Positions 3,001 through 60,217 of a DNA stretch of 64,000 bases are shown here, piece after piece (position 1 is the first letter of the stretch; every line of letters begins with the position of its first letter). A program made the position numbers and the translations under genes. Location of the stretch: assembly GCA_964035575.1 (NCBI GenBank), contig OZ037836.1, positions 1,798,001 through 1,862,000 on the forward strand, in the 5' to 3' direction. This DNA comes from Rhynchopus sp. YZ270_cl-10 (Eukaryota). The notes under the pieces were generated by a model, which did not search any database, was not told the origin of the DNA, and worked only from the letters and a program-made list of their open reading frames with translations.

Positions 3001-6000
3001 CTTGGACTGAACACATGGGAGTGCAGGTGCATTGCGCCCTCGTCTGGGTCGAAGGTCGCAGGTGCGGCGGTGTGTGTGGAGGACGAGTGCTCGTCGCACG
3101 CGTCGACCTGCACGGGTGCGGGGCAGGACTGCGTCGACCCGTCGACAACGACGAAGGGAGACTGGCGTTGCGAGTGCAGGCAGCCGTCGACTGGGACAGC
3201 AACTGCGGGGGCGGCCAAGTGCTCGACGAACGAGTGCGACTTCCACGAGAAGACGTGTTCCGACGTGGGACAGGTGTGCTACGACCCGGACCTGTCGGCG
3301 CAGTCGCTTGGTGACTGGAACTGCACATGTGTGGCCCCGTACTCTGGGACGCAGGTGGGTGCGGCAGCAAAGTGCCTGGTGGATGAGTGTGAGCTGTACG
3401 GACAGGTGTGCACGGCTGCAGGACAGACCTGTGTTGACGAGGAGAAGGGGATGGCAGGGTTCTGGAAGTGTGTGTGCCCGCCACCGAACGAGAAGTTCAA
3501 GCGTGACATGGGTGTGGCGGACTGCATTGTCGATGAGTGCACGACATGGACGAACACAAGCACCCCGTCTGCGATGCCGTCGAACGACGCGAGGGCGGTG
3601 AACCTGTGCGAGCAGGCTGGGCAAGTGTGCGAGGACCCGAACCACGACGCGTCGTCTGCTGGGGACTGGACGTGCACGTGCCCGCCTCCGGGGAACAGGA
3701 CTGCGCGTGCACACGTGGCGGCGTGCGATATGGACGAGTGCGCGGACCCTGCGAAGGAGGCTGTGTGTGCGGCCAAGGGGCAGCGCTGCGTGGACCCGAA
3801 CTGGGAGCCTGGCCACGAAGGGGACTGGACGTGTGTGTGCGTGCCGCCGTCGGTTGGGACGGGGATGCAGGGGGCGGCCGTGTGCCTGGTCGATGAGTGC
3901 AAGACCGACGGTGGTGTGTGCCAGTCAGGTGGGCAGCTGTGTGTCGACACCGACCATGCGGAGGCTGGGACGTGGGCATGCGAGTGTGTGGCACACGCGG
4001 GTGTGACTGCGTCGGAGCTGGGAGGACTGGCAGACTGCAACCCGCCGTCGAGCGAGTGCAGAATTGACGCCATCCGTGAGGTGTGCACGTCGTCGAACCA
4101 GGGCTGCTACGACCCGGACCTGAAGGCACACAACGACTGGGTGTGCGAGTGCGTGCCGCCTGCGACGGGCCCGCAGAAGCAGGGTGAGGCGACCGTGTGT
4201 GTGCTCGACGAGTGTGCGGAGGAGTGCCCGACGTGCGGGAAGTCGGTGTGCGCGGCCGTGGGGCAGACATGCACAGATGCGAACACGGACGCAGCCTCGC
4301 TGAGCGACTGGACGTGCACATGCCCGACACCCTCGACAGGGTCGAAGAAGGGGGGCGTGGCGGTGTGCCAGCTGGACGAGTGTGCTATGGTGTGCGACGG
4401 CTGCCCGTCGGACATCTGCACTGCGGCACGCACGCAGTGCGAGGACACGAACAAGGACGCGCGTTCGTCCGGTGACTGGGAGTGCGTGTGCCGTGCACCT
4501 GCCCTGGGACGTGTGACACAGGGCGTGCCGGTGTGCCTGATTGACGAGTGCGAGCAGAACGCATACAAGTGCACGAATGGACAGATGTGTGCTGATGCGA
4601 ACAAGCTTGCGGCGTCTGAGGGGGACTGGACGTGCACGTGCCCGCCGCCGACATCTGGGACTGCAGTAGCGAGTGCGGCAGTGTGCTTCGAGAACGAGTG
4701 TCTTGTGGACACGAATGTGGAGACGTGCACTGCAGCGGGGCAGGTGTGCATTGACCCGAAGCCGCAGCCGACGAACAAGGGTGACTGGGAGTGCCACTGC
4801 GCGCAGGGGAAGACCTTTGCTGTGGCGGCGGCAGCAGTCTGTGTGCTGGACGAGTGTGCGGAGCAGTGCACGTCGTGTGCGGACAGCGGGGGCGGGAACG
4901 TGTGTGCGAAAGCCGGGCAGCTCTGCACGGACCCGAACACGTCGCCGGAGAGCACACGTGACTGGAAGTGCCAGTGTGCGGCAGGGTCGAAGGCTGCGCT
5001 TGGTGGCCCTGCGACGTGCGAGGTGGACGAGTGCTGGCAGCCAAGCAACTTTGGTGCACACACGTGCCATGACACACCGCAGACGACAGTCGACGGGTGT
5101 GCGTGCCAGTGTGGCTGGCAGGTGCAGGATGCGGCACAGTACCCAGGGGCACATGGCCCTGGTATTGAGGTGGGCTGTCTGGCAGGGTGCTGCAACCCGA
5201 ACGTTGTGGCGTCGGGGGCGTGGTGCCTGCTGGAGCCTGTGCAGACGACAGCCGTGTGCCAGGACCTTGTGACTGCGGGGGAGATGGTGCAGACGTGCGC
5301 GGTGCTTGCGTCGGGGGTGGCACCGGCGAACCCGGAGAACGTGTGCTCGAGGGCGGGCCAGCTGTGCGTCGACCCGGACACAAGTGCGATGAGCTCGGGT
5401 GACTGGCGGTGCGAGTGCATTGCACCGTCGAGTGGGGACCCGAGTGTCGGGAAGATTGGGTCGTGTGTGGTGGACGAGTGCGAAGCGAACGGGCAGGTGT
5501 GCTCTGTGGCGGGTCAGCTGTGCAAGGACACGGACAAGACGTCGGAGAACACGTGGACGTGTGTGTGCCCGTCGCCTGCGACAGGGTCTGCGACCGGGAA
5601 GGCGGCGATGTGCGTGTACGTGGGTGAGTGCGAGACGGCAAGCATTGCGGAGGTGTGTGCGCAGATGGGGCAGACGTGCTACGACCCGGACGCATCTGTG
5701 ACTGGGAACTGGGTGTGCAAGTGCGTGGAGCCGTCGACGGGTGTGCCTGCGCTCATGACGACGGCGACGTGTGTGCTGGACGAATGCACGGCGCAGTGCC
5801 CGACGTGTGCGGACAAGGGGTTCGGGAACCTGTGCGATGTGGCCGGGCAGCACTGCGTGGAGTCGTCGACGTCGCCTGCAAATGTTGAGGACTGGATGTG
5901 CAAGTGTGTTGGGGACGCAGTTGGGGAGTCTGTGGCGTCTGTGGCCGTGTGCATGCTGGACGAGTGCAAGATGAACAACGGGCGCCTGGCACAGCTGTGC

Positions 6001-9000
6001 GGTGCGGCGGGGCAGACCTGCAACGACCCGAACAAAGCGGTGCTCGGGGGGCTGGACGACTGGGAGTGCGTGTGCCCGCCACCGGGGATCGGGCGTATGA
6101 CGGGGAAGCTTGCGACGTGTCTGCGTGATGAGTGCATGGAGGAGGACGTGGCTGTGGTGTGCACGGCGGCAGGACAGACGTGCCAGGACCCGAACACGGA
6201 CGCACGCAGCACCGGGGACTGGACGTGCGCGTGCTCGGCGAAGCCAGGTGAGACACCGAAGGTGGCGGAGGGGGAGCCCGCAAAGTGCGTGCTGCCACCG
6301 AGCTCGTGGTGCGTGCAGCACGGCGACACGTGCACGTTCGTGGGACAGGCGTGTGTGCCTGCAGCAAGCATTCTGGATGCCGGCTCGTGTGCGTGCATTG
6401 CACCGCAGACAGGGCCGACAAAGGTTGGGGCGGCAACAGTGTGCATCCTGGACGAGTGCACGGCGGTTTGTGCGACGTGTGCTGACCACGGTGCCGGGAA
6501 CATGTGCACAAAGGCGGGACAGACGTGCCAGGAGGGAAGCATGAACCCCGTGACTGGGAAGGGGGACTGGCGCTGCAAGTGTGCCGGCTCGGACATGTCG
6601 GCGGTGGCGGCAGTGGCGGTGTGCACCGTGAACGAGTGTGACACAGACCCAAAGGCAAAGGTGTGCGCAGCTGCGGAGCAGACGTGCACAGACAAGAACA
6701 CAGCTGGGGACTCGCTGAACGACTGGATGTGCGCGTGCCACGAGCCCTGGACGGGGAGCAAGATGCTCGGGGCTGCGGACTGCAAGTTTGACGAGTGCCT
6801 GTTCGCCGGGAGTGAGTGCACGGCGCTTGGGCAGACGTGCTTCGACAAGGACACGTCGGCTCAGGTGCGTGGGGACTGGGAGTGCCGCTGTGTGGCACCT
6901 GCAGAGGGGTTCGCTGTTGCGAAGGCGGCGACGTGTGTGTACACGGGGGAGTGCGAGGTGCAGGCGAACAAGGAGGTGTGCACGTCGGCAGGACAGACCT
7001 GTGTGGACCCGAACCCGGCTGTGGCGGACGACTGGGAGTGCCGCTGCGTGTCGCCGCAGGCAGGATCACACACAAAGGCGGCGGTGGCGGTGTGCACGCT
7101 GGACGAGTGCCGTGCGACGTGCGCCTCGTGTGCGACGAAGCCAGGGTCGCAGACACACACATGCGCGTCTGCGGAGCAGGACTGCGTGGACCCGGACACG
7201 GCGGCGACGAGCATTGCGGACTGGACGTGTGTGTGCCGTGCGCCTGCGTCTGGGGAGATGGTGGGTGCGGCGGCTGTGTGCAGCGTGGACGAGTGCTACA
7301 ACGCAGAGAACCGTGCGTCGTGCTCGCGTGTGAAGGACACAACGGGGGCGGAGGTGCAGCACTGTGTGGACAAGGACTACACAAAGACCGGGGACTGGGT
7401 GTGCGAGTGCATGTACCCGTACCACGGAACGGCGGGACAGCGTGAGGCGGCGGTGTGCCTGGTCGACGAGTGCACGGCACCGGAGGCGTGGAGCAAGAAG
7501 CCGAACGGAAACGCGGTGTGTGGGGCGCAGGGACAGACCTGCCTCGACCCACAGCAGGGTGTGGCGTCGGAGCTTGGGAACTGGGTGTGCCAGTGTGCGG
7601 ACGGGACTGGGGAGCCGAACAGGGGTGCGCCGTCGACGACGTGCAAGCAGGACACACTGTGTGCGCAGTTCGGGTCTGCGTGCGGACCGCTCGAGATGTG
7701 CGTGGAGAAGTCGGAGGTGTGGTCGTGCAGGTGCATTGCGCCCTTCGTGGGTGAGGCTGTTGAGGAGGCGGCGTCCTGTGTGCTGGACGAGTGCGTGGCG
7801 GAGTGCACGACGTGTGCACAGCAGGGGTCGGTGCACATGTGCACGCAGGCCGGGCAGAAGTGCGTGGACCACGACAAGTCACCGGACAGCCGTTCCGACT
7901 GGTCGTGCGTGTGCGAGGTCGGGAAGGGCGAAGCTGCTCTGCACATGGCGGAGTGCATGGTTGACGAGTGCGTGCTGAACGGGGTGACGTGCGAGGGGAA
8001 GGGCCAGGAGTGCGTCGACCCGGACATGCATGCCGAGACAAGCGGAGACTGGGTGTGCCAGTGCATTGCGCCTGCGTCTGGGAAGGCTGTGGCCGGACCT
8101 GCGACGTGTCTGCTGGATGAGTGCAACCTGTACGGCGGGAAGTGCACAGTGGTGGGACAGGTGTGCATTGACCAGAACACGGCCCCGGCAAGTCTGAACG
8201 ACTGGACGTGCAACTGTCCGGCACCTGCGTCGGGGTTCATGTACGCAGGACCTGCGTCGTGCACGTACACGGGGGCGTGCAAGGATGCTGCAAACTTCGA
8301 TGTGTGTGCGGACGCGGGCCAGCGCTGCTTCCCAGGGATTTCGTCGGCAGACGACTTCAGGTGTGGGTGTATACCGCCGTACCGTGGGTCTGCTGGGGTG
8401 CGTGCCCCTGCACAGTGCATGATCGACGAGTGTGAGGACATCTGTGCAACGTGTGCGCGCACGAGCGAGAAGGGTGTGAACGTCTGTGCGGGTGCGGGCC
8501 AGCGTTGCGAGGACCCGAACCTGTCTGTACAGAGCCTGGGTGACTGGGTGTGCATGTGCCAGGCCCCGTCGACAACAGCGGCCGTTGCGCGTGCTGTTGA
8601 CAGCTGCCTTGTGGACGAGTGCCTTGCCATCACCATGACAGGTGCACGCAAGTGTGACAACTTCAAGCGCTACACGAACGACGGCTGCGAGTGTGCGTGC
8701 GGCTGGAAGGTCAGCGGCATCAGCGGCAGCGGTGCCGGCCTGGACGAGCCCTGCAACACAGGCTGCTGCAACCCAGACAAGGCAAAGGAGGGAGACTGGT
8801 GCATTGTTGCCGACAGTGCCTTCAACAAGCAGAGCGCTGTCTGCACTGCCCTTATCAGCAAGCAGAAGACGTGTGCGAACGAGCGTGCACCTGCCCCTGC
8901 AGGCGCACCTGTGAGCGAGTTTGTCGATGTGTGTGCTGCCGCTGGCCAGCGTTGCTACGACCCGAACCACTCCCCAAGTGTGCAGGGTGACTGGGAGTGC

Positions 9001-10851
9001 CACTGCACAACCTCTGAGGAGTACCACATCCTTGCCCCGGCTAAGTGCAGCGTGGACGAGTGCCAGCAGGTCACAGTGTGCTCGGAGGTTGGGCAGAAGT
9101 GCTTTGACAAGAACACCGATGCGGAGTCGAAGGGCGACTGGGAGTGCCAGTGTCTGTCAGGAAGCGGGGCGAAGGACATGGCTGCTGCAGAGTGTGTGTA
9201 CGACGGCCACGACGAGTGCCAGGTTGAGGCAAACCAGAAGATCTGCCTGGAAGCTGGACAGTACTGCTTCGACGAGGACCCTGAGCTGGCGGGTGACTGG
9301 GTGTGCCACTGCACAGACCCTTACGTGCAGGAGGCACCGGGCATCACGGAGCCTGCTGTCTGTGTGATTGACGAGTGCCTGGCGACGTGCCCGACGTGCG
9401 CAAGGAAGGGAGACGGCCACGGCTACGCCTGCGAAGGACAGCAGTGTGTCGACCCGTCAGGAACGGAGCTTGGGGACTGGCGCTGCGGCTGCCTTGCCCC
9501 TGCCCTGGGCGCTGGCCTGCAGGAGCGTGCAGTGTGTGTGCAGGACGAGTGTCTCGACACACAGAACTTGCAGACGTGCACAGACAAGGGACAGGAGTGC
9601 GTGGACCTGCACCCAAGCGACACAAGCCTGAACGACTGGGAGTGCCACTGCGTGCGACCGGCCCTGGGGTCGGCCATTGGCCACGCAGCAGTGTGCCAGA
9701 TCAACGAGTGTTTGACGGAGGCACACATGCAGCTGTGCCACGAGCAGGGGCAGATGTGCTTCGACCCTGACACAACAGCAGAGTCGACAGACGACTGGAT
9801 CTGCAGATGCCCGGCCCCTGCTATTGGAAGTGCTGTCATGAAGCCTGCGGAGTGCGTCTTTGTTGGGGAGTGTGCGAAGCCGGAGATTGCAGCTGTGTGC
9901 ATTGCGGTGGAGCAGACGTGCGTCGACACGGACGTGGCACAGGACGGGACCTGGGTGTGCAGCTGTGTGGCACCGAAGACAGGGACGAACGGGCTCATGG
10001 GCCCTGCGGAGTGTGGGATTGACGAGTGCCAGGCTGAGTGCAAGACGTGTGAGCAGGACGTGTGCAAGGAGGCCGGACAGGACTGCTACGACCCGGACGT
10101 CACGGTTGAGGGTGACTGGATGTGCGCATGCAAGGGCGGCACTGGGGACAAGATCACGGCGGCTCCAGCAGTGTGCACAGGTGTTGTGTGTACGACGCTG
10201 GGTGCTCAGGAGTGCACAGCTGCACCCGAGTGTGTGTACGAGAGCTACTACGGCCTTTGCGACTACGTCAGAGGAGCACCGGAATGGAACACAACTGCAC
10301 CGGCACGTCCGATTGGCGAGGGTGAGGACGACGACGACTGCACCTTCTGGGAGTGCTGGTGGTGGCTGCTTCTGCTCCTCCTCCTGTCCTGCTGCCTCCT
10401 GCTTGCCTTCCTCCTGTTCCGCTTCAGACAGAAGCAGCAGCAGAACGACAGTGACGACAACAAGTGGAACAAGCAGTTCCAGGCTCAGATAGGCGACGAC
10501 GAGAACGACTACGGCCTGGTATGTGCTTCTTTGTTGTTCTCAGTGGTATAAGCGGGTTCAGTTGCTTATTCTCGACATGGCAGTCATATCGCGCAAGTCT
10601 TTGCATGAAGGCGACCACAATCTGTTCTTGTCACATATTGCGTGTGTTTCATGCACATCATTGCAGCATCACAATACCCGAGATCACGCACCACATATCT
10701 TCGGCAAGTATTTTCCACACATTTTGTCAAATTACTGATTTCAAACCACACCACACCACAGTCGGAACGCTCACCCCAGGGCAGTGCAGGGGGCACAGAG
10801 GAGCCGCTTCTGGAGATGTCTGCAAACCCACGTGACAACGACGACATCTAG
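1..10851 (+). CDS. Giant cysteine-rich EGF-like repeat type I membrane protein, 5'-partial; exons <1..10518 and 10762..10851
   Basis: The frame is open from base 1. It contains dozens of ~50-aa repeats (DEC...C..AGQxCxDP....DWxCxC..P..G), a hydrophobic TM segment WWWLLLLLLLSCCLLLAFLLF (~10357-10420) and a basic stop-transfer RFRQK. A GT donor at 10519 and a CAG acceptor at 10759-10761 join in phase 0 to SERSPQ...DNDDI*. Confidence 0.9.
10519..10761 (+). other. GT-AG intron (243 nt) in the Cys-rich protein gene
   Basis: CTG|GTATGT ... CCACAG|TCG. Composition becomes more AT-rich, and splicing gives a GC-rich in-frame terminal exon. Confidence 0.75.
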
Positions 10852-20767: not shown

Positions 20768-20798
<31 letters not shown>

Positions 20799-21370
20799 GA
20801 AAAATTGTTGGAATAGTGTAGCCACCTGTGCAAGCTCCACTGTGCTCGTGAAAACCTCAAAAGAAGTATTGCGCGCCGTGGCGGACATTTCAACAATTGT
20901 GACATAAAAAGCAGGAGGCAACACGATTGGGTGAAGTTATCAATGTTACATCGACGAGGAAAGCTCCCCAGTTGCACTTTATGGCAGTGTGGCAGATCTC
21001 TTGCCCCAGCACCGGGAATCCTTCATGTGCCATCCGCCTTCACTATCAGGACGTCTGCTGAGAAGGAAGAGAAGGCGAACCGGAAGCTTCTACGGGAGGA
21101 AATTGCCAGTTTGCTGTCCTTGGAGGGTGCCGGGCAAGCCACGAAGAGGAGTTGCGGTGGCAGAGGAGACAAGGTGGCAGAGTGTCAGGATGACGACCTG
21201 TGCGCCTGGGAGGAGTGACATGTGTGAAGTCATCCACAATGGATTATGAGAAAAAAAATCAAAAAAAAAAAAAGTTTTATTACGGGTGCGCAATATTACG
21301 GGGCGCATAATTATGGGTAAATATTGGAGTTACCCATAATTATGCGCCCCCGTAATATAGCGCCGCACTG
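20659..21370. mobile_element. Non-autonomous Tc1/mariner-like element (MITE), TA target duplication
   Basis: TA|CAGTGCGGCGCGATATTACGG ... CCGTAATATAGCGCCGCACTG|TA. Paralogous empty sites lie at ~28140 and ~30775 (GGCAACGACACTATTCC). Confidence 0.85.
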
Positions 21371-22382
21371 TACACTAATCCAAAAAGTTTTTAACAAAAA
21401 AACACAAAAAGACAAACAAGAAAGAAGTCACCCCTCTGAGTGACCTCTCCCCTCTTTTTACTTTTGCATTATGAAACACATTTCTCGCTCTACGCACACA
21501 CTATGTCTGATACACCCCAACCACCCATTTGTCCCGACACGATCCTTGTATTGGGTACACTACACCACACTCTCGCACTCTGAGGATGCGCGTCAACTGT
21601 TATTCGATTTCCCGTGTTTCTACCGGTTTACCCCCCCAGTATACGCTGCCACACCAGCGCGGTTTCAATTTTGAGAGAAATGTGCAAGGTTGGACCCCTG
21701 TAGTCATGATAAAAGCGATGACGCCATTGAGCGACTCATAGGCGCATGAGTGATAGACGTTGTCGCTGTGGTATCCCGCCTCGCAGAGGAAGGTGTTTTT
21801 TGACACAGCAACTTCGTGAGTCAGTATCGGTCTGCGTATCAAATTGAAAACGGCGTGTTTGCGCGTCATATCGCAGAGGATAGAAACTGAAAAGTTATGA
21901 AAATACAAAACTGATGTGAAGCCAACGAAAACGATGGTGGCCAAGTTGAAAATAAGAACACATAGTGGAGCACATCCTCGGGTGTCCACACTAATACAAC
22001 GAAGCTTTCAAAAACAAATCAAAACAAAAGACCTCTCTCCCCTTTGTAACTTGTTTCAAGACCTCTCACTGTGGGTCTTGTGTGGTCACGAAGGTTGTTC
22101 GCCCCTACGTGGGTGCACTTCACGCAGTGCCTTTGTACCCTTAGCTTCCAAACACTCTTCTGCACACTTGCAAGTTGTCCTCTTCCTCTTTTGGTTGCTT
22201 TGTCTTGCCCCACTATGCATGGCTTGCGGAGTATCTTTGTAGGGGTTGTGGAGTTTATGGCGTTTCACCACATCTGGATGATCATTTTATTAGCAAAAGA
22301 CCTCTCCCTAACTGTTTGTTGTCTCTTGCGTACTCTTACCCCCAATTGAAAACACCTGCACAAAACAGAGAGACACAAAACC

Positions 22383-24993: not shown

Positions 24994-26184
24994 CGACGTG
25001 GTGTGCTGGTGGGAGGGGATAAAGGGAAGGACTGGAAGAAGGGTACGAAGGGAGGTGGGGATGGGGCCGGTAGGTACTGCCTACTCTACTCGTCTGCACA
25101 AACATTACAAAACACAGAAAGACACAAAAACATAGGAGGCATAAAGCAGGGAAAGGGGTTGAGGGACAGGAGGATGGGGATAAAGTCTGCCTAGATCAGA
25201 AGCGGACCTGTGTTCACATGATCTTCCCTTGAAGGGAGACTGGGGAGACTGAAGGGAAAAGCCTGCGTTTTGTGGGTAGTCGACCGTAACGGTCGACAGA
25301 GGGAGGACGGTGTATAAAATCATCAGCAAAGCTGAGGTGGCCAAGATACTGATCTTGTTTTTGGGTGTGCGTTTCACCACAACCTCTCCCTTTTGTCTTT
25401 ATTGTTTTCATTGCTTTATTGTTTGCGGTGGTGGGGGAAAAACATAAAAAGGAAAAGTAGGGGTGCGGTTTCAATTCCGGTATCACATATGATACTTCCA
25501 ACAACAACCGAAACAGAAGAAAGTACAAAAGAAGAGAATAAGAACTGCAGGGAAAAATAGACAAAAAGAGAAAAAAGATATTTACAAAAAAGGGACAATA
25601 AAATTTGTTCGCCCAATTTGCTCTCCCGTGTGGATGGTATTGCGTTAGGGCTGCGGCCGTTTTAGTTTTTGTTAGTGTGGCATAAAAAAGAGGTGAAATA
25701 ATATTTCAAAATATATCCGTTTCGCTTGATCAGATCTCGACCGTTTGTTGCATTATACGCTTCCACTTTTGAAAAAAATGATTGTTTCCAGCACACGCGG
25801 ACTGTGTCAGTGTGTGATGGTTTATGATTATTGCCCGAAGTACAGAAAATGGGAGTGTCGGTGGCGGAGCACAAAAGGGTAAAATGAAAAACATATCGGG
25901 TGGGGTCTCTGATCTATCTGTGCGACGGATATATTTCCCCTAACTCTCCATGTTTGGCCAGGGCCTCTCCAGTGTGTCAGTTGCAAAAAAACAAAAACAA
26001 AAACAAAATGCCTCTCCCCTTGTAACTGTTTGTAGTCTCTTGCACACCACACACACACACCCTACCACTCCCCTTACATACGAAGCTATCCTTGATTGGA
26101 TTTGGCTGTCTTGTGGGGAAAACTGCAACTGTTAATTTGTAGGGGCCTACCCAAAACACCTGAAACAGAGAGAGAGGCAAAACC

Positions 26185-32958: not shown

Positions 32959-33308
32959 TTGTGTGCACGCACGCAAAGAGATTCATTTTTTTTAACTTTT
33001 TTTTGGGTGTAGCGTTGGTCAGCAACCTATTTCCACGTGGTTCTCGGCTCGCATGGTCCTCCCGGGTAGAGGAGGTGTCATTTTTCGGGAAAACACTTTC
33101 CCCCCGTTTCGTGAAGCTTTGAGAGGCTTTGGCGTGGGTAGCGTACCAGCTAAACAACAAAATGAACAAAGGTTTTTAAATTATTTTTACGTTCTTCCCA
33201 CATCGCACTTCACCACAACCTCTCCCATGGGGTGTATTGTGTCATGGGTGTTTAGTTTCTATTTTTGCGCCATCGAAAAACCCTCACAAAACAGAGAGAC
33301 ACAAAACC

Positions 33309-34049
33309 ATGGAAATATGTGTGGAGAGCTTTGACGGAGAGAAGTACACAGTCGAGGTGGGTGTGGATGATACAACTGCGGACATACGGCGGAAGGTGGC
33401 GTCTGCAGCAGAGTTGTGCGAAGACGGCTTTGACATGAGCTTCGGAGGGAAGCTGCTGGCCGAAGGAGACGACACGACGCAGCTGAGTGCTGGGGACACA
33501 GTTGTGCTGACGAAGACGAAGTCACAGAAGGACGACGCCATTGCAGCTCTTCATGACTTGGGTGAGACAGCGCTGACGTCAGAGAGGTTCAAACGTCTGA
33601 CAGAGCCCAAGCTGATTCGTTTGTTTCTGCAGGCGGAGGTTGTTACTGAGATACCCAATTACTTCTTGTGGAACAATGTGACGCACAGCCGACCCTATTT
33701 CGTCTCCCACTGCAGCGCATTGCAAACCCTTGACTTATCTGGGTGGAACAATGTAACGACTGTCGGATCTTGCTTCCTCTCCAACTGCAGCGCATTGACG
33801 ACACTGGACTTATCTGGGTGGAACAATGTTACGCAGGTTGGGAGGCACTTCCTCTTCAACTGTACCTCATTGACCACCCTTGACTTGTCTGGGTGGAATA
33901 ATGTTACGCAGATTCATCCACACTTCCTGGAAGGATGCAACATACGGACAAGCAGCATCAATGTCACCGGATCGAGCAGTGTTGTGACGAAATATGTGCA
34001 CAGCCGTAAGGTAAAGCACAAAACCAAACACAAATGTGTGTGCATGTGA
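33309..34049 (+). CDS. UBL-LRR protein class B (CaaX), internally deleted
   Basis: 336 nt shorter, in frame, than the closest paralog at 38344. Ends KHKCVCM*. Confidence 0.82.
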   Translation: MEICVESFDGEKYTVEVGVDDTTADIRRKVASAAELCEDGFDMSFGGKLLAEGDDTTQLSAGDTVVLTKTKSQKDDAIAALHDLGETALTSERFKRLTEPKLIRLFLQAEVVTEIPNYFLWNNVTHSRPYFVSHCSALQTLDLSGWNNVTTVGSCFLSNCSALTTLDLSGWNNVTQVGRHFLFNCTSLTTLDLSGWNNVTQIHPHFLEGCNIRTSSINVTGSSSVVTKYVHSRKVKHKTKHKCVCM

Positions 34050-34206
34050 GGCACTGTTTGCTCATGCAAGACAACACCAAACCTCTTCTTCTTTTCAACG
34101 CACACTCTGCAGTGGGAAATGATCCAAACTACTGTGCACTGATTTTCCGAATGAGGAAGCAGACTCCCTGAGTTACACTGTGTGTCACCTACACAACATA
34201 GCCAGT

Positions 34207-34245
34207 ACCAACGATTTCTAAAGCTACAGTTTCTGTACTTCATTG
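34207..34245 (+). ncRNA. Spliced-leader (SL) exon sequence, euglenozoan/diplonemid type (orphan copy)
   Basis: ACCAACGATTTCTAAAGCTACAGTTTCTGTACTTCATTG, 39 nt. It carries the conserved ACAGTTTCTGTACTxxATTG 3' half of kinetoplastid/diplonemid SL exons as I recall them, and is followed by GT. Confidence 0.85.
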
Positions 34246-34298
34246 GTCGAGGTGTGTGCGTTTCACCACAAATCTTACACAACCTCTACAAAAATAAA

Positions 34299-35288
34299 AT
34301 GTCCCGGGCAGACATGCGTTTGGACGATGTCAAGTGGGAGGAGGTAAAGGTAGTGTCGGAGGTCCCCAAGGGAGCTTTGGAGCCGACGCAAATTCCGGAC
34401 TGTGTGTTTCCCCAGTGCGGTGAAACACACCGTGACGGAGAATCGGGCACGTGCCGTATGTGCGGTAGGCGGACGACGGCCGCATGACTCGACGCCAACC
34501 TGCGGGCGTATGGGGATGCACTCGACACCTTCTCGGTAGGGTTCAAGGACGCGACGTGGGTTTGTCTCGTGTGTGCAGTACGGGTGCACCAGGGGGTACA
34601 ACAGTGGGATATGCGTGACAAGAGCGAAGGTAAGGAGGCGGAACCAGACCAGCAAGGAGGGCTTCTACAACAGGTAAAGGACCCCGCATCCCAGCAACTT
34701 TTCGAAGCTCTTTTGGCGGAGCGGGAGGCACATCGGCAGGAGCGCGAAGAAATGAGATTGGAGAGAGATGAGGTGGCGCGGGGACTGACGGGAACCCTCA
34801 TCCAGAGGGTGTCGTCATGGTACGGCCGAATGCGCTTCCCGGCGATGCAGCAGATGGCGCGCCATGCCCTTTACGAGAGGTATGGCCGCGGCGCGGAGGA
34901 CGCAGGTACCGCCGCTTCGGGGGCGGAGCACGAGATCCGCACGCTGTATGGCGTCATTCTTCCCTTGCTCCCTTTGGTGGTGGCCCATCCGGAGGCAAGG
35001 GAGGCGGTGCACAGGGGTGTGTTGAGGATGGAGTCCGTGCGTCTCCGTACGTATTACGGACACGATGCAGCGGTCTTGTGGGAGACCAAGATGCAGCACA
35101 CCCTGTGTGCGGACCTGACGGATCAGCTGCTTCGGGCAGTTACGTCGCAGGCCCAGACCGCGGGGGAAAAGGAGGCCGAGCAGAGGAAGAGGAGGAGAAT
35201 TGAACTGGACTCAAATTTTGCGCAGGGAGACGTTAGGTTCGGACAGAAGGGGGGAAAAGGGGGGAAGGGGGGGAAGGGGAAGAAGTGA
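34299..35288 (+). CDS. gag-like ORF1 of the YR element (in-frame TGA at 34485-34487)
   Basis: ATG 34299 is in frame with ORF 34569-35288. Cys pairs CVFPQC, CRMC and CLVC, a coiled-coil stretch and a GGK-repeat basic tail. Confidence 0.6.
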
Positions 35289-35342
35289 CAGTCCCACCCA
35301 CCCACCCATCACGAGGAACTGCTACGGGTAGAGGGGGAGAAG

Positions 35343-36522
35343 GTGTTGTGTGCGCAGCAGCCGCAGCTAAACATACTAAACTACGTAACTACGACACCAA
35401 ATCACACCACGAAGCAAAATCCGAAGAAAGCATATGGCAGCGCACTGCAAAACATACTAAACTACGAAGCTACGACACCAACTCACAACACGAAACAAAA
35501 TCCGAAGAAAGCATGTGCCAGCGCACTGCAAAACATACTACGGGGAGAGGGGGAGAGGATGCAGGGACGGACGGCGGACAGGGTGGAGACGGGGCTGCAG
35601 CGGAGGCTACGGCAGGAACCGTGCACTCTGGGGAGACCGCGCAGATACGAAGGGGGTCACCTCACGCTAGAGGAGAGGGGCAAGATCACCACGAATGCAA
35701 ACCTTATCCTCGACCAGGCTTTGGCGAAGAGTACGTGGGGGAACATAGCGTCGTGCTACCGCCGTTTCGCGGAGCTTCGCAAAGCATGGGAGGAAGCCGA
35801 AGGCGTGCTGGACGTTCCGACTGCGATCATCTTGTGGGTATCCAAGAAGATAGAGATGGACGGCATAGCTCACAGCTCTGCGCTGGCATACACGTACGCG
35901 ATCTCTTCTGCGCGCAAACACCTCTTGGAGAAGCCGGTCGAAAGCACGAAGCTGGACGCTTTCCGGAGGGGTTTACGGCGAATGGGAGCCGAGGTTCCGA
36001 GGGTGCAAGCGATACCGGCGACAAGGGAGGAAGCGGAGCAAGCCATGCGAGAGGAAAGCGACCCCGAAGTGCGTCTAGCGATAGGTTTGATGTGGTACGG
36101 AGCTGCAAGACACTCAGACGTGATGAGCATCGCCGCGAGGGAGGTAACGACTCAAGGGGATACATCGGCGATCACCTGGAGAGGAACCAAGAACGATCCT
36201 TTTGGGAAAGGACAGACGACGGGACTGACGCTGGACAAGGGCATGACGCAGCTACTACACAGGGCGAAACGAGGGAACCAGGGGCAACTTCTGCAACACG
36301 CATCCTACTTCAAAGTAGCGAAGGCACTGAAGAAGGTCAACAAGAAGCTGACTCCACAGCCTACGGCGGGGGGCAATACACAGGCTTGTCACAAGGGACC
36401 TGGAGTTGGAAGACGTGTGCAAGGTGACGCGACACAAGACCGTGGAGGGGCTTCTGCAGTACGCGCCGCTGGCAGCAACGACACTGGTAAAGAAGACGGC
36501 CGCGATCTCTCAGCTCCTATGA
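35343..36522 (+). pseudogene. Tyrosine recombinase with a frameshift at ~36354
   Basis: GAARHSD (catalytic R) and TKNDPFGKG (K) are in the main frame. The shifted frame from 36355 gives HSLRRGA...VTRHKTVEGLLQY* (HxxR, H, Y). Restoring 2 nt gives LTPHSLRRG. Confidence 0.85.
35369..35540 (+). repeat. 81-bp tandem repeat (~2.1 copies) in the YR N-terminal region
   Basis: NILNYVTTTPNHTTKQNPKKAYGSALQ / NILNYEATTPTHNTKQNPKKACASALQ / NIL. Confidence 0.85.
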
Positions 36523-38213
36523 GAAAGTTGCTTGGGGTGCAGCGTTTCCCACAGCAAACACAGTCCACCATACGGTGAGTGTCATTCAGCGAGATCCTGA
36601 CTCCGTCTGTACAAGCATACGATACATCAAATGAGGAACCAGACTCTTACTCAGCGGGCTTCGAGGCGTGGTACGACAACGATTTCTCGGTGGAAGTGGA
36701 AGGGGAACACGTACGGCCGGATTCCAGGAGGGAACCCAGGGGACAGATGGCACGGATTTCGACGAACCGAATGGACCTGGACGCGATCCGGAGGATGGAT
36801 GCCGAGGGGGAGACAGATCAGGTACTGGATGTGATCACCAACTTTGAAAGATTCATGTCGCTGTTCACGGAAAAGCCCCCGAACAAGCTATCACGTGGTA
36901 CGTCCCGACACATGGCGCAGTACGCGAGTGCACTACGCGAATGGGGAGTTGTCGAGGCTGCTGAAGGAGGTGACGGGGTGGTGCTGCCCGCTTTCACAGT
37001 GGCGAAGAAGTCGGGGGAACTGAGATTGGTGGTGGACGCCCGACGTCTAAACCGGATAATGGTTAGGCCTCCTGAGATGCGGCTGCCGCTTATCCGAGAT
37101 GTAGTGCGCGACATCGTGGACTCGGAGGCCGTGTGCGTTGCAGACGGAGTCTCGTACTTTTACCAGATCCCTCTGGCTCACGAGCTCCGTAAGTACTTCT
37201 CGCTGAGACTGGCGGGCGCACGGGGAAGTACGGAGGATGTGCAGCTGGCAGTGCTGTGCATGGGGTGGTCATGGAGTCCCGCAATAGCACAGCGTATCTC
37301 GAGGGTTTTGGTGGGACGACAGAACATTGCGTGGGTGGACAACTTTCTACTTCTGGGAAAAAGCAGCGCACTCGCAGCAGAGGAGTACAGGAAGTTCAAA
37401 GGGAGGTGCGACACGGCTCAAGTGGAGCTACACGAAGAAGAAGGGGGAAGACCGCAACAGCGTTTCGAAGCACTCGGGCTGGAATTCGATCTTACTGTGA
37501 AAGGCTTCAGATCTACAGAAAAATGGGTGGCAAAGCTCGCTGAGTCGGCGGAGGTGAAGGCAGCTATCGAAGGAGGAACTTCGCCGCGGGTTTTCTTCAA
37601 GGTGGTAGGATCCATTGTGTGGTGGATGTACACCCGTGATAGACGTTTGTGCTTCTTCCCGAGTATGATTGGAGCGGTGCGGAGCGTAGCTAAACACGCC
37701 ACTACTGAACAGAGTTGGGATCACAGTGTAATGATACAGCAAGGCGCAGTGCGGGAAATAAAAGGGTGCATAGAGGAAATCTGCGAGAACGTGTGGGTTC
37801 CTCAGAAGGGACTTGGGACGGCGACACTGGTGGTGTGGACGGATGCATCTAGCACCGCCTGGGCGGCGGTCACCGACTGGCGACAGGGGGCACAGGGAGC
37901 CTTCCAGAGCACAGAGAAAGAACATCACATATTTTTGAAAGAAATGTGGGCGGCATTCATGGGAATTAGGCTGGCGAGCAGTCTAGGGTTTACCGGAGGC
38001 TCCCTCACCCTGCGCATCGACAACTTACCGGTGGTGCGATGTCTTGAGAAGGGCCACTCGGGGAACTACCTCGCAAACCTGATGATGCAGGAAATGTTCC
38101 TACTCGCGGACCGTAAGGGGATGGCGGTGCGGCCACTGTGGGTATGCACGGCGGAACAAGTGGCTGACGAGTTCACGCGAGGATCACAGATTGAGCAGAT
38201 AGTGGGGATTTAA
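36519..38213 (+). CDS. DIRS-class reverse transcriptase + RNase H (in-frame TGA at 36576-36578 if started at ATG 36519)
   Basis: RT motifs FTVAKKSGELRLVVDARRLN, DGVSYFYQI, LCMGWSWSP and WVDNF. RNase H motifs WTDAS, HIFLKE, IDN and ADEFTR. Confidence 0.88.
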
Positions 38214-38343
38214 TTGAGGGTTTACGTTCTTCCCACATCGCACTTCACCACAACCTCTCCCATGGGGTGTATTGTGTCATGGGTGTTTAGTTTCTATTTT
38301 TGCGCCATCCAAAAACCCTCACAAAACAGAGAGACACAAAACC

Positions 38344-39420
38344 ATGGAAATATGTGTGGAGAGCTTTGACGGAGAGAAGTACACAGTCGATGTGGGTGTG
38401 GATGATACAACTGCGGACATACGGCGGAAGGTGGCGTCTGCAGCAGAGTTGTGCGAAGACGGCTTTGACATGAGCTTCGGAGAGAAGCTGCTGGCCGAAG
38501 GAGACGACACGACACAGCTGAGTGCTGGGGACACAGTTGTGCTGACGAAGACGAAGTCGCAGAAGGACTACGCCATTGCAGCTCTTCGTGACTTGGGTGA
38601 GACAGCGCTGACGTCAGAGAGGTTCAAAGGCCTTTCCGATACCAAGCTGATTCATTTGTTTCTGCAGGCGGAGGTCGTTACTGGGATCCCCTCTAGATTC
38701 TTGTCGGGTGGGAGGTTCTCCGAACTTAATCTCAGTGGTGTGCCAGGTGTGACTGCAATATGTGACAACTTCGTGGCAGATTCCCCCTGGTTGCGCACAG
38801 CTGATTTGTCTGGGTGGAGCAATGTGATGGTCCTCGGGGCCTGCTTCCTCTCCAACTGCAGCGCGTTGAGGACCCTTGACTTGTCTGGGTGGGGCAATGT
38901 AACGGAGGCTGGTCCCTACTTCCTCTCCAACTGCAGCTCATTGACGACACTTGATTTATCTGGGTGGGGCAGCACTGCGACGGTTGGAAATTGCTTCCTC
39001 CGCAACTGCAGATCGCTGAGGGGCCTTAACTTGTCTGGGTGGAACAATGTGACGCACATCCGGCCCTATTTCGTCTCCCACTGCAGCGCATTGCAAACCC
39101 TTGACTTATCTGGGTGGAACAATGTAACGACTGTCGGATCTTGCTTCCTCTCCAACTGCAGCGCGTTGACGACACTTGACTTATCTGGGTGGAACAATGT
39201 GACGCAGATTGGGAGGTACTTCCTCTTCAACTGCAGCTCATTGAGCACACTTGACATGTCTGGGTGGACGAGTGTTACGCAGATTCATCCACACTTCCTG
39301 GAAGGATGCAACATACGGACAAGCAGCATCAACGTCACCGGATCGAGCAGTGTTGTGACGAAATATGTGCACAGCCGTAAGGTAAAGCACAAAACCAAAC
39401 ACAAATGTGTGTGCATGTGA
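38344..39420 (+). CDS. UBL-LRR protein class B (CaaX)
   Basis: Start assigned by paralogy. Ends KHKCVCM*. Confidence 0.88.
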   Translation: MEICVESFDGEKYTVDVGVDDTTADIRRKVASAAELCEDGFDMSFGEKLLAEGDDTTQLSAGDTVVLTKTKSQKDYAIAALRDLGETALTSERFKGLSDTKLIHLFLQAEVVTGIPSRFLSGGRFSELNLSGVPGVTAICDNFVADSPWLRTADLSGWSNVMVLGACFLSNCSALRTLDLSGWGNVTEAGPYFLSNCSSLTTLDLSGWGSTATVGNCFLRNCRSLRGLNLSGWNNVTHIRPYFVSHCSALQTLDLSGWNNVTTVGSCFLSNCSALTTLDLSGWNNVTQIGRYFLFNCSSLSTLDMSGWTSVTQIHPHFLEGCNIRTSSINVTGSSSVVTKYVHSRKVKHKTKHKCVCM

Positions 39421-40410
39421 GGCACTGTTTGCTCATGCAAGACAACACCAAACCTCTTCTTCTTTTCAACGCACACTCTGCAGTGGGAAATGATACAAAC
39501 TACTGTGCACTGATTTTCCGAATGAGTAAGCAGACTCCCTGAGTTACACTGTGTGTCACCTACACAACACAGTCAGTATTTGTGTACTTTTTTTGCACTA
39601 TTTTCGAACAAGATATAACAAAAAGCTTGCGTTTCTTTTATCGAACCGATTTTCCGCCCCCGCACTCAAAACGTAAACACTATCATTCAGAAAAATACAT
39701 TTTTTCCTCTCCTGTTTTCTTAAGTTAAGTAAGAGAAAACCGAATGGAGTGGAAACGTAGTGAGAGCGCAGCGGAAACGATAGTGGGAGATGCAACGAGA
39801 TTTTTTTCGTAATGTTTTATTCTCCCCCCACAAAATATTTCACCACAACCTCTCCCTTTTGTCTTTATTGTTTTTATTGCTTTATTGTTTGCGGGGGTGG
39901 GGGGAAAACATACAAGGGAAAAGTAGGAGTTTCAATTTTTAAAGGAAGGTGTTTTTTTGACTCATATCGAGGAGGATAGAGAAACTAAAAAGTCATGAAA
40001 ATACAAAACTGATGATGCCTCAGCAGGGCAAGTGAACTAAATAATGGTGCCAAGTTCAAAAGGAACACATAGTGGAGCGCATCCTCGGGTGTCCACACTA
40101 AGTCAACGAAGCTTTCAAAAACAAAAACAAAAGACCTCTCCCCTTGTCACTGTTTGTTGTCTCTTGCACACCACACACACACTCCACCACTTCCCTTTGG
40201 GCACATGCCTACCCACAGAGAGAGAGACATCCCTCGCGTCCCATCACAGCCTTGCAGCATACAGTTCTGCACACAGAGGTGTCCCCTTTGTCTTACACCT
40301 CTATCGTCTCAGTGGCAACATGTCTGCCTTCTTCTTGTCTCCTTCCCGTTCTGCGAGTTGTGTTTCTTCTTGCCCCACCCAAAACACCTGAAACAGAGAG
40401 ACACAAAACC

Positions 40411-57699: not shown

Positions 57700-58544
57700 G
57701 GCATGTGCATCTTTCGAGAGGCTGGGCGCTCATTGCGATGTTCAGAGAATGAATTTTACATTGCACGTGGCACTTTTCCCACGTTGTATTTTTTAGTTTT
57801 CATTTTTGATTTTTTTTCATTTTCCCACAAAAGATATCAAAGTACGATACCCACCCTATTCAAACCCAAACCGTTGTATTTTAGTGTGATCTTCTGTGGT
57901 GAGGAAGTGTTTCAAATTTTTCAGTATTTTCTCCTATTCTTCTGTGTTTGTGATTACCCCCGTGTTTAGCATGAGCAGAGTGTGCATGTTAAGATTTCAC
58001 TGCATCTTTGTGACATGCCTTGCGGAAGGGTTCGAAAGGGGGGGGGGGGAGGAAAGGCGGTTTCAAAAAAAAAGGTCCTGCTAAAATTTTCCTCAAAATC
58101 TGGTTTTGTAATATTGACCCTTTGCTCCCCCCCCCCAGGGCCCCCCCCCTACATTGATTTCAATACTATACCTTACTTCACCTACGGTTGCCCTTACAGG
58201 GGGGGTGAAGGAAGGTTGTTGAAGCTTTTGCTGATGATCAACAGAACTTTGTTGTTAGGTGTCGGACCCCCTGAGTTACACTGTGTGTCACCTACACAAC
58301 ACAGTCAGTCTTTGTGTACTTTTTTTGCACTATTTTCGAACAAGATATAACAAAAAGCTTGCGTTTCTTTTATCGAACCGATTTTCCGCCCCCGCACTCA
58401 AAACGTAATCACTTTCATTCAGAAAAATACATTTTTTCCTCTCCTGTTTTCTTAAGTTAAGTAAGAGAAAACCGAATGGAGTGGAAACGTAGTGAGAGCG
58501 CAGCGGAAACGATAGTGGGAGATGCAACGAGCTTTTTTTCGTAA

Positions 58545-59567
58545 GGGTAGTGTAACTTTTTCAGCCTGTTACCGTTACCGCCCGCCGGATTTTTTGAAAA
58601 CCACAAAAAAAAAAGTTATGTAGAAAGTACCTAGGGAAAAAAGTTATGGAGAGGTTCTATAGGAAAGATGTGGGTGGCGCTGTACAGGGCCCACACCTAT
58701 AGCACCTCACGATCACTTGGTGAGTCAGCAATGTTTCTCGAGAGAAACCTCCGTCGTTTGCCTTCACGAGTGTTTTCTTGAACACTGTACACTGTACACT
58801 GTACACTGTACACTGTACACTGTACACTGTACACTGTACACTGTACACTGTACACTGTACACTGTACACTGTACACTGTACACTGTACACTGTACACTGT
58901 ACACTGTACACTGTACACTGTACACTGTACACTGTACACTGTACACTGTACACTGTACACTGTACACTGTACACTGTACACTGTACACTGTACACTGTAC
59001 ACTGTACACTGTACACTGTACACTGTACACTGTACACTGTACACTGTACACTGTACACTGTACACTGTACACTGTACACTGTACACTGTACACTGTACAC
59101 TGTACACTGTACACTGTACACTGTACACTGTACACTGTACACTGTACACTGTACACTGTACACTGTACACTGTACACTGTACACTGTACACTGTACACTG
59201 TACACTGTACACTGTACACTGTACACTGTACACTGTACACTGTACACTGTACACTGTACACTGTACACAGTACACACTGTAGTACCTATAACTTTCTGGT
59301 ACCTAGACACCCGGTGTCCAGGAACCTAGGTACCCAGGCAACATGATAATGAGACACAAAATGCTACACGTAACAGAAAACAAGCTACACGTCACGAAAA
59401 TAAGGATTTTACTGTGAAGGAAACTCTGGAAAAATGTAAGAAAATCTCTTCATAACTTTTTTTCCCCTGGTAAAACTTTTTTTTCTTCATAACTTTTTTT
59501 CTCCGCCGCCCGCCGGATTTTTCGAACACCAAAATAACGGTAACAGACCGAAAAAGTTACACTACCC
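58545..59567. mobile_element. Non-autonomous PIF/Harbinger-like element, TAA TSD
   Basis: TAA|GGGTAGTGTAACTTTTTC...GAAAAAGTTACACTACCC|TAA. The empty paralogous site TTTCGTAATGTTTTATTC lies at ~39805-39822. Confidence 0.9.
58782..59268. repeat. (ACACTGT)n 7-bp satellite, ~69 near-perfect copies
   Basis: Directly visible tandem array. Confidence 0.98.
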
Positions 59568-60217
59568 TAATGTTTTATTCTCCCCCTCAAAATATTTCAC
59601 CACAACCTCTCCCTTTTGTCTTTATTGTTTTTATTGCTTTATTGTTTGCGGGGGTGGGGGAAAAACATACAAGGGAAAAGTAGGGGTTTCAATTTTTAAA
59701 GGAAGGTGTTTTTTTGACTCATATCGAGGAGGATAGAGAAACTAAAAAGTCATGAAAATACAAAACTGATGATGCCTCAGCAGGGTTAGTGAACGAAAGA
59801 ATGGTGCCAAGTTCAACAGGCACACATAGTGGAGCGCATCCTCGGGTGTCCACACTAAGTCAACGAGGTTTTCAAAAACAAACCTGGTCTGTGTCAAGCC
59901 AAAACCAGACAAAAAAAGCACAAAACAAAAGCACAAAAGCAGCCTGGTACAGATCCCAAACAGTTTCCTTGTGACAGTGGCTTTCAAATTTTATTTGAAA
60001 GTATATGAATTTGCTTTTGACATTTGCCTAGAGACATCCCTCGCGTCCTATCACAGCCTTGCAGCATACAGTTCTGCACACAGAGGTGTCCCCTTTGTCT
60101 TACACCTCTATCGTCTCAGTGGCAACATGTCTGCCTTCTTCTTGTCTCCTTCCCGTTCTGCGAGTTGTGTTTCTTCTTGCCCCACCCAAAACACCTGAAA
60201 CAGAGAGACACAAAACC

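Follow-up and report, generated by a model that had tools for sequence, protein, structure and literature searches.

The window (the whole 64-kb stretch of DNA analysed here) carries on its forward strand a tyrosine recombinase (YR) retroelement, probably of diplonemid origin, headed by a copy of a spliced leader (SL) exon. The exon copy (34207..34245) is of diplonemid type and is probably one A short at its start relative to a 40-nt exon; an A precedes this position in contigs. It is followed directly by GT at 34246, the start of the left arm of a short repeat unit (34246..34261), which in most other listed copies has no SL exon ahead of it, and then by a 10-bp core (34262..34271). The core recurs at 38244..38253, ahead of the right part of the short unit (38254..38310, right boundary approximate) with its second hairpin and T-rich tract. 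Between the two cores lies a cassette of 3,972 bp, which comprises a copy of the unit's right hairpin arm within the 5' UTR (34278..34287), a gag-like ORF assigned from position only (34299..35288), the YR (35289..36522), which continues the gag frame after one stop, and an RT/RNase H (RT/RH) reading frame (35237..38213, domain part 36747-38213) that overlaps the YR gene. The exon, the GT, the 10-bp direct repeat and the gag ATG, 53 nt past the exon end at 34299, all lie where a preliminary description of this DNA had placed them, and the gag-YR-RT order that it had likened to VIPER and TATE was borne out as gag–YR–RT/RH. A 10-mer common to both junction zones arose in only 2 of 2000 shuffles. 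The sole repeats common to the ends of this copy are two of 10 nt, with no split direct repeats of the form A1...B1-A2-B2; considered in light of the lack of target-site duplication in VIPER-like elements, the 10-bp repeat at both ends can be read as a duplicated recombination core or as element-internal sequence. Poly(A) is absent from the element's 3' end, and neither a target-site duplication nor a poly(A) that would mark this copy as a retrocopy was seen.

The RT/RNase H frame matches RVT_1 (E 3e-5) and RVT_3 (E 0.002), both under their respective cut-offs. In the YR, the catalytic R, H-x-x-R, H and Y align with conserved columns and the profile matches a XerC-like structure (E 6e-12); PF00589 is matched by 9 of 16 aligned YRs, the window's two YR pieces not being among the nine. 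The gag-like ORF has no Pfam match, and its Atlas matches are low-recognition only. RT/RNase H combined with a YR and no integrase is the arrangement of order DIRS, while the non-LTR RT, RLE endonuclease and poly(A) of the CRE/SLACS group do not fit an element with a YR and no 3' poly(A). The top Atlas clusters of the RT are rich in Euglenozoa, which we take as a lead only. The closest likeness is to unannotated YR elements of Diplonema papillatum, D. ambulator and prokinetoplastids, labelled 'Gag-Pol' or hypothetical, whose RT is related (34-44% identity to the named D. papillatum proteins). In a quick version of an RT tree, with rows that do not include VIPER, TATE, Ngaro or DIRS, the window row falls within a 23-row group (support 83) that includes every one of the 10 named Diplonema rows. 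Named matches to VIPER, TATE, Trypanosoma, Leishmania or Bodo are absent from the 40, 8 and 78 matches listed, most of which are unnamed, and a search of viral contigs found neither RT relatives nor the left-arm pattern. Judged by these sequence comparisons, the family has its relatives among Diplonema and prokinetoplastid elements, and it seems to be common in diplonemids as well as prokinetoplastids. In the library searched it looks undescribed, combining the gene order of VIPER-like elements with short cores in place of long split repeats.

This copy is broken, with in-frame stops at 34485 (gag-like ORF) and 36576 (RT/RNase H frame) and a frameshift near 36354 in the YR. The letter at the 34485 stop differs in most contigs of the public runs, and contigs from all four runs (X1-X4) read differently at the frameshift site. 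The element lies between two host ubiquitin-like/LRR genes on the same strand, one upstream (33309..34049) and one downstream (38344..39420), the latter perhaps copied together with the element. Homology to the 3' region of the paralogous gene (39421-39578) stops at 34207, exactly where the SL exon starts. The last 23 nt of the element, the core and the right flank are duplicated at 33186-33315 (129/130 identical, forward strand), ahead of the upstream paralogous gene and adjoining another repeat. A tandem duplication proven by the sister genes was considered and dropped because the two flanking genes (97.8%) are no closer than other paralogs (93.0-99.3%). The window's own left junction (34190-34201) is uncovered in X1 and X3 contigs; contigs drop rare links, and this missing cover is therefore no finding.

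The sequence that results from rejoining the two halves of the short unit occurs on its own. Its core is present in the window at 25365-25390, within an empty unit (25365..25464, forward strand; partial left arm, core and sister right part) that has no SL exon, and in 20, 22, 20 and 35 contigs of runs X1-X4. The core and sister right part also stand behind a different upstream sequence at 39839..39930 (forward strand), with a paralogous copy at 59596-59687; the right part at 38254..38310 is 73% like the sister type at 39839-39890. At face value the rejoined empty unit is present in hundreds of copies in the public runs, although summed contig depth is not copy number. Logan contig depth values may be capped. 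Exact copy numbers from depth bins were attempted and dropped, as the bins scale unevenly. Contig depth is flat across 34250-34267 and drops 67- and 94-fold after 34271, and on a rough reading of depth empty units exceed filled ones by ~25-70 fold. Empty units have variable upstream DNA (agreement 0.58-0.65), with a consensus ending in CAG in three of four runs and shifted by one letter in X2. The other filled copies share a 17-nt left flank with this copy; for the letters ahead of 34245 in them, which are unprinted, we infer an AG from the empty copies. Site specificity, as first proposed, is upheld in that the ORF cassette sits at one fixed position of one repeated sequence. Among the joints listed (15 of 206) in public-run contigs, none is a circle or tandem junction. 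The idea that the unit ends on the right in a 3-bp AGG core for integration was rejected because homology runs past that supposed end.

The first hairpin of the unit had been thought to form only across the rejoined junction. This proved incorrect: the filled left junction re-forms the same stem by means of a second right arm that the element carries at 34278-34287, and it folds the stem better (z -3.6, 0/300 shuffles) than does the rejoined core (z -2.1, 11/300). One relative (L031) has the same design. Rfam gave no match at gathering scores in the window, with one chance-level match at the junction, and no match in the 20 of 80 related loci checked; no tRNA was found in the 48 of 80 checked.

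The 80 related loci bear on how the leader came to be there. In 14 of them, chosen by eye and not independent of one another, the left end carries a pyrimidine-rich tract (62-83% versus a locus average of 45-50%) followed by AG (12) or AGG (2). In the 13 of these with an ATG on the contig, the gag ATG lies 16-55 nt past the AG (55 nt in L031, compared with 53 nt past the exon in the window). This acceptor-like AG is at the same place where the SL joins in the window copy, which speaks against the earlier idea that the element gains its leader without trans-splicing. Relatives keep the same YR–RT/RH overlap, the three kinds of junction recur in them around conserved cores of their own, and L019 and L023 have a split direct-repeat layout or an equivalent tandem, two arrangements that assembly overlap blurs. 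The left repeat of relatives reaches at least 100 nt upstream of the AG, whereas in the window family upstream DNA varies; homology of the termini is therefore imperfect.

The cassette lies between 10-bp cores within a short unit. With modest confidence, we propose that the SL exon was left behind by trans-splicing to an AG acceptor on the left edge of this unit and preserved through reverse transcription, rather than being part of an SL RNA gene. Read-through host transcription would cross the element, and the SL would be trans-spliced at the AG just ahead of the left arm, so that the resulting RNA is capped and has a hairpin at its 5' end as well as a leader of 53 nt. The element's RT would copy this RNA, and the YR would normally circularise and integrate the cDNA, recombination between the cores leaving an empty unit as the element's own SIRE-like terminus. 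This copy would have gone into the genome without trimming, its leader still attached and fused to a host gene's 3' region, and would have decayed later; the downstream host gene was perhaps on the same cDNA. A precedent is found in dinoflagellates (PMC6050394, PMC12014239), where a genomic SL copy marks a reverse-transcribed trans-spliced RNA; those tagged RNAs are retrogenes, whereas here the tagged RNA is a retroelement and the host a euglenozoan. Counting against this explanation, the rejoined unit has two hairpins and an A-T5-G stretch ~75 nt from the GT, like the 75-nt SL intron of D. papillatum (PMC10161547). A fuller version is more tentative, and we think it has less than an even chance of being correct: a YR lineage lacking long terminal or split repeats would have its 5' end set to the base by trans-splicing, its YR would move the cassette between 10-bp cores of hundreds of its own empty docking units, these would provide the splice acceptor together with a 5' hairpin, rebuilt by the cassette, and this copy would be a replication intermediate fixed with its leader.

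That the ~100-nt unit is the element's own SIRE-like terminus is likely, and its chief competitor, which we consider possible but rather doubtful, is that the unit is a repeat belonging to the host (SINE- or MITE-like) and independent of the element, into which the YR inserts its cassette at the 10-bp core, as a phage integrase does at attB, restoring the hairpin, with the SL acquired through trans-splicing and retrocopying, possibly of an empty unit before filling. The excess of empty units, the element's copy of the right hairpin arm, the different sequence that meets this core at an identical point at 39839 and 59596, and the filled-filled and filled-empty neighbours at 323-bp spacing in L017 and L019 all speak for a host repeat. 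However, the spacer unit of relatives varies with the element family, the RT frame extends into the unit in L019, and the core resembles those of relatives in other hosts. These features fit an element-owned unit, as SIRE is for VIPER (PMC6681497).

The preliminary description had instead read the rejoined sequence as an SL RNA gene, main or variant, with the element targeting its intron and obtaining a capped leader without trans-splicing. This we regard as improbable, and targeting of SL RNA genes by a YR element is probably wrong. In its favour are the exon itself (94.9% over 39 columns to SL exons of an independent contig; 36/39 letters, by eye, to 'Euglenozoa 14' of PMC3795323), the GT, the two hairpins, the intron-like length and a second SL-headed copy, X1 record 1. 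There is also the A-T5-G match, found at 38296-38302 in a search for the Sm site AT4-6G: the statement that no clear Sm site exists had overlooked this Sm-like stretch. It is located within the T-rich tract, and the sister right part lacks it. Against it, full exons run on into GTATGG in 14 and 17 contigs with a common upstream flank, their pieces ending alignment at 34247, while the exon here adjoins a host 3' region rather than that flank. The donor at the rejoined site is G|GTC instead of G|GTA, a conserved motif of SL genes (PMC3795323). None of the pieces listed (16 of 285) is an abundant exon-to-GTCGAGG piece, and the sole SL-headed junction piece among them, X1 record 1, has a depth of 99, a single-copy level. 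Five of the six left-junction pieces listed lack the exon, alignment beginning at 34245 and 1-3 letters being left unaligned. Piece lengths and depth among the listed pieces lead us to deduce that there are not many copies of exon plus rejoined intron behind a common upstream flank: if SL-headed empty units were abundant, a piece of 52 nt or more would have to exist, and listed pieces go down to 41-42 nt. Two assumptions enter this deduction, namely that the longest pieces are kept among those listed (12 of 26 loose-end rows, 16 of 285 pieces) and that contigs are 31-mer paths. Taken whole, the rejoined exon and intron-like sequence has no folding advantage over shuffles (z -0.5, 91/300), and an SL-like match occurs in 0 of 80 related loci, most of which carry little flank. 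Of the two observations that the preliminary description had named as fatal to its reading, an SL intron unrelated to the rejoined sequence was thus found, while heterogeneous flanks right at the 10-bp repeats were not.

Least probable of all, the whole unit, left arm included, might integrate at AG|G-like sites and occasionally hit the SL exon/intron border (TG|GT), the SL promoter then driving a capped exon-element RNA that was retrocopied here; the fusion point is the exact exon end and the SL intron and unit both start with GT, but trans-splicing yields the same junction without a rare event, and no listed piece joins the SL upstream flank to exon and GTCGAGG.

If the trans-splicing explanation is true, a genomic copy that keeps its spliced leader would locate, to the exact base, where the RNA intermediate has its 5' end and would show adaptation of a retroelement to hosts in which every mRNA needs trans-splicing. 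End regeneration in YR retrotransposons is mostly inferred from repeat layouts, and a compact YR with a 10-bp core is a directly testable recombination system. In Trypanosoma cruzi, SIRE supplies trans-splice acceptors. SIRE is likewise a short abundant unit and corresponds to the terminal repeats of a YR element joined together (PMC6681497), although it is ~430 bp with a ~30-bp unique middle, whereas the window unit is ~100 nt with halves overlapping by the 10-bp core. VIPER and TATE (VIPER-like, order DIRS, euglenozoan hosts; PMC6681497, PMC12278014) share with the window element a gag-like ORF followed by overlapping YR and RT/RH, and TATE resembles it further in a fixed insertion position, in telomeric repeats. 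Unlike them, the window copy has no long split direct repeats, only the 10-bp core and the 10-bp arm copy, and is ~4 kb with an RT/RH domain part of ~490 aa. Retroelements of the CRE clade (SLACS, CZAR, CRE1/2) likewise stand beside SL exon sequence, but these are non-LTR elements with an RLE endonuclease, poly(A) and target-site duplications, inside true SL genes (PMC12278014), whereas the window element has a YR and belongs to a family that is mostly not SL-headed.

In the window, a 39-nt SL-type exon (34207-34245) is followed by GT at 34246 and by a 10-bp direct repeat whose two copies start at 34262 and 38244, with 3,972 bp between them; the gag ATG of this copy lies 53 nt past the exon end, as the preliminary description had stated. 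The plus strand of the window has six copies of the 10-mer, and a 10-mer common to both junction zones arose by chance in 2 of 2000 shuffles. Between the repeats lie a gag-like ORF, a tyrosine recombinase (YR) gene in frame with it beyond one stop, and an RT/RNase H frame that overlaps the YR gene. This layout, with gag assigned by position only, and the YR residues R, H-x-x-R, H and Y, which match conserved columns in an alignment with 14 relatives, bear out the earlier reading as a YR retroelement of gag-YR-RT order. PF00589 was matched in nine of the 16 aligned YR rows, the window's two YR pieces not among them, and the YR profile matches XerC- and Cre-type structures. The window copy is damaged (stops at 34485 and 36576, frameshift near 36354); contigs from four public sequencing runs (X1-X4) mostly carry different letters at all three lesions, so intact copies probably exist elsewhere.

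The same gene layout was found in the 29 loci inspected among 80 related loci, most of which were fetched with little flank. The core motif is present in 14 of the 80, one occurrence being spurious, and sits at left, right and empty junctions alike. L019 and L023 have every one of these three types, the units between junctions measuring 237-323 bp, although assembly overlap makes split repeats and tandem arrays indistinguishable in the relatives. At 14 left ends, chosen by eye for visibility and not independent of one another, a pyrimidine-rich stretch terminates in AG (12) or AGG (2), and the gag ATG follows 16-55 nt past the AG in 13, the fourteenth contig ending earlier. The SL junction of the window occupies the same place as this AG; an SL-like match was found in none of the 80 loci, with their mostly short flanks. 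The best RT match is an unnamed protein (54%), and the RT is 34-44% identical to named Diplonema papillatum proteins; D. ambulator and Apiculatamorpha supply further matches. In a quick 52-row tree the window joins protein P0001 (100) inside a 23-row group (support 83), where every one of the 10 named Diplonema rows also falls. A diplonemid is the likely host. Among 40, 8 and 78 matches, none carries the name of a VIPER, TATE, Trypanosoma, Leishmania or Bodo protein; the matches are mostly unnamed and the searches word-seeded, so this bears only weakly on the distance from VIPER/TATE. Two family members (L080 and P0019) come from contigs filed under bacterial MAGs (Verrucomicrobiaceae, Nitrospira), which binning contamination likely explains.

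The rejoined core, for which a search had been proposed, is present in X1-X4 contigs and, with no exon in front, at 25365-25390 of the window. The left arm stands ahead of a sister version of the right part in 20, 22, 20 and 35 contigs (X1-X4), and ahead of the window copy's own right part in 10 X4 contigs. Summed depth, which is not a copy number, is level across 34250-34267 (152,000 and 159,000) and drops to ~2,000 past 34271; read roughly, this corresponds to 240-430 empty units versus 6-13 filled. DNA upstream of the empty units is variable, its consensus ending in CAG in three of four runs. Filled copies have a common 17-nt left flank, indicating that the cassette position is fixed. The hairpin had been thought to form only across the rejoined junction; instead, the element carries a second copy of its right arm at 34278-34287, and folding of the filled left junction gives z -3.6, versus -2.1 for the rejoined core, so the stem is kept in both states, which would fit a cis signal on RNA or a recombination dyad. 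Relative L031 has an identical hairpin-arm design.

From the observed anatomy, empty units, common left flank and acceptor-like signals of relatives we infer, with moderate confidence, that trans-splicing would occur at the AG preceding the left arm and give a capped RNA with a 53-nt leader, that RT would copy this SL-spliced RNA, that YR would circularise and integrate the cDNA, and that core-by-core recombination would leave SIRE-like empty units. That the short unit is instead an independent host repeat targeted by YR is possible, if rather unlikely.

The preliminary description suggested that the element sits in an SL RNA intron, which would make the rejoined sequence an SL gene. Still favouring this are the two hairpins of that sequence, its A-T5-G stretch (38296-38302) and an intron-like length resembling the 75-nt SL intron given for D. 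papillatum in the available part of PMC10161547; excerpts of PMC4708014, PMC11771631, PMC8061765 and PMC7859406 contain no diplonemid SL intron. However, exon pieces in contigs run to 34247 and continue with GTATGG (14 contigs in X1, 17 in X3; agreement 0.89 and 0.93), behind a common upstream flank in 5 and 6 contigs, respectively, and G|GTA is a motif conserved in SL genes (PMC3795323, in part). The empty units have the variable upstream DNA described above. Junction evidence comes from 12 of 26 loose-end rows and 16 of 285 pieces. Five of six listed left-junction pieces align from 34245 only, with 1-3 unlisted, unaligned letters ahead. Were SL-headed empty units abundant, there would have to be an unbroken piece of 52 nt or longer, because no piece ends within the flat-depth stretch; the sole SL-headed junction piece among the 16 listed is X1 record 1 (depth 99), in a table that keeps the longest pieces yet lists some of 41-42 nt. 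The rejoined site is thus probably not the SL gene, an identity we consider improbable, and SL-gene targeting by the element is unlikely. That the unit struck the exon border of an SL gene is more improbable still.

Trans-splicing before reverse transcription would also suit the surroundings of the window copy. Its homology with the 3' region of a paralogous gene (154/158) stops at the first exon base, the host continuation of that region sits after the downstream gene instead, and the element's last 23 nt plus right part are duplicated ahead of the upstream gene (129/130 identical), as would follow if cDNA made from an SL-spliced RNA that perhaps also contained the downstream gene had joined the host 3' region in one step. 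Neither a duplication nor a poly(A) proving cDNA joining was found at this copy, which probably records the element's trans-spliced RNA intermediate. Retrocopies tagged with an SL are already known from dinoflagellates (PMC6050394, PMC12014239, both in part).

The element is not a CRE/SLACS element. It is like VIPER/TATE in gene order and ORF overlap, as described in portions of PMC6681497 and PMC12278014, and is not classed as a member, since split direct repeats are absent from the window copy. The portion of PMC10161547 covered mentions only >60 D. papillatum ORFs similar to TATE, MULE and Helitron proteins. Among literature titles and abstract openings, Repbase and subscription journals being outside this scope, no description of this YR family or of an SL-targeting YR element was found; the euglenozoan YR retroelement variant is real and apparently undescribed.

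SL sequence also occurs in other settings. In a few contigs the SL exon is joined directly to unrelated sequences behind 34244, 34245 and 34249, which suggests other SL-headed retrocopies in the genome. Matches of 13 nt to the 3' part of the exon (23967, 51971 and, on the minus strand, 13987 and 63718), three of the four followed by G to make an acceptor-like CAG, may be SL relics or ordinary acceptors. A dispersed repeat end (40058-40132; copies at 11800, 14113, 15081, 15921, 20783-20844 on the minus strand, 21836-22032, 59857 and 63518) carries a hairpin and an A-rich tail, and its final ~20 nt look like the beginning of the SL exon. In X2-X4 it is joined to the exon from 34211 (depths 1222, 2254 and 7367); it could represent the 3' terminus of a CRE-like element. 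Nine distinct 39-nt diplonemid-type SL exons are encoded in the DNA of the viral-collection contig IMGVR_UViG_3300046534_001516 (L081-L089; 237,777 bp, 34-37% GC). By eye, each exon follows an AAAA(T)TGAA motif, which resembles the giant-virus early promoter, at a distance of ~15-20 nt and precedes an ATG by 35-65 nt; none has GT directly after it, and two neighbouring genes are Bro-N. The contig is a candidate giant virus, one that may carry hard-wired spliced leaders; in the parts of the literature covered, no report of a virus with DNA-encoded spliced leaders was found.

Elsewhere in the window, ~13 ubiquitin-like/LRR genes of two subfamilies are arrayed at 19049-62400; the array has repeat units of 75 nt, and its intergenic DNA is mosaic. 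A ~1-kb insert at 58544-59568 is absent from the paralogous stretch 39560-40125; it has terminal inverted repeats of 34 bp and, inside, a 14-bp tandem array. Positions 1-10000 are GC-rich with many cysteine-rich repeat units and are probably one very large surface-protein gene.
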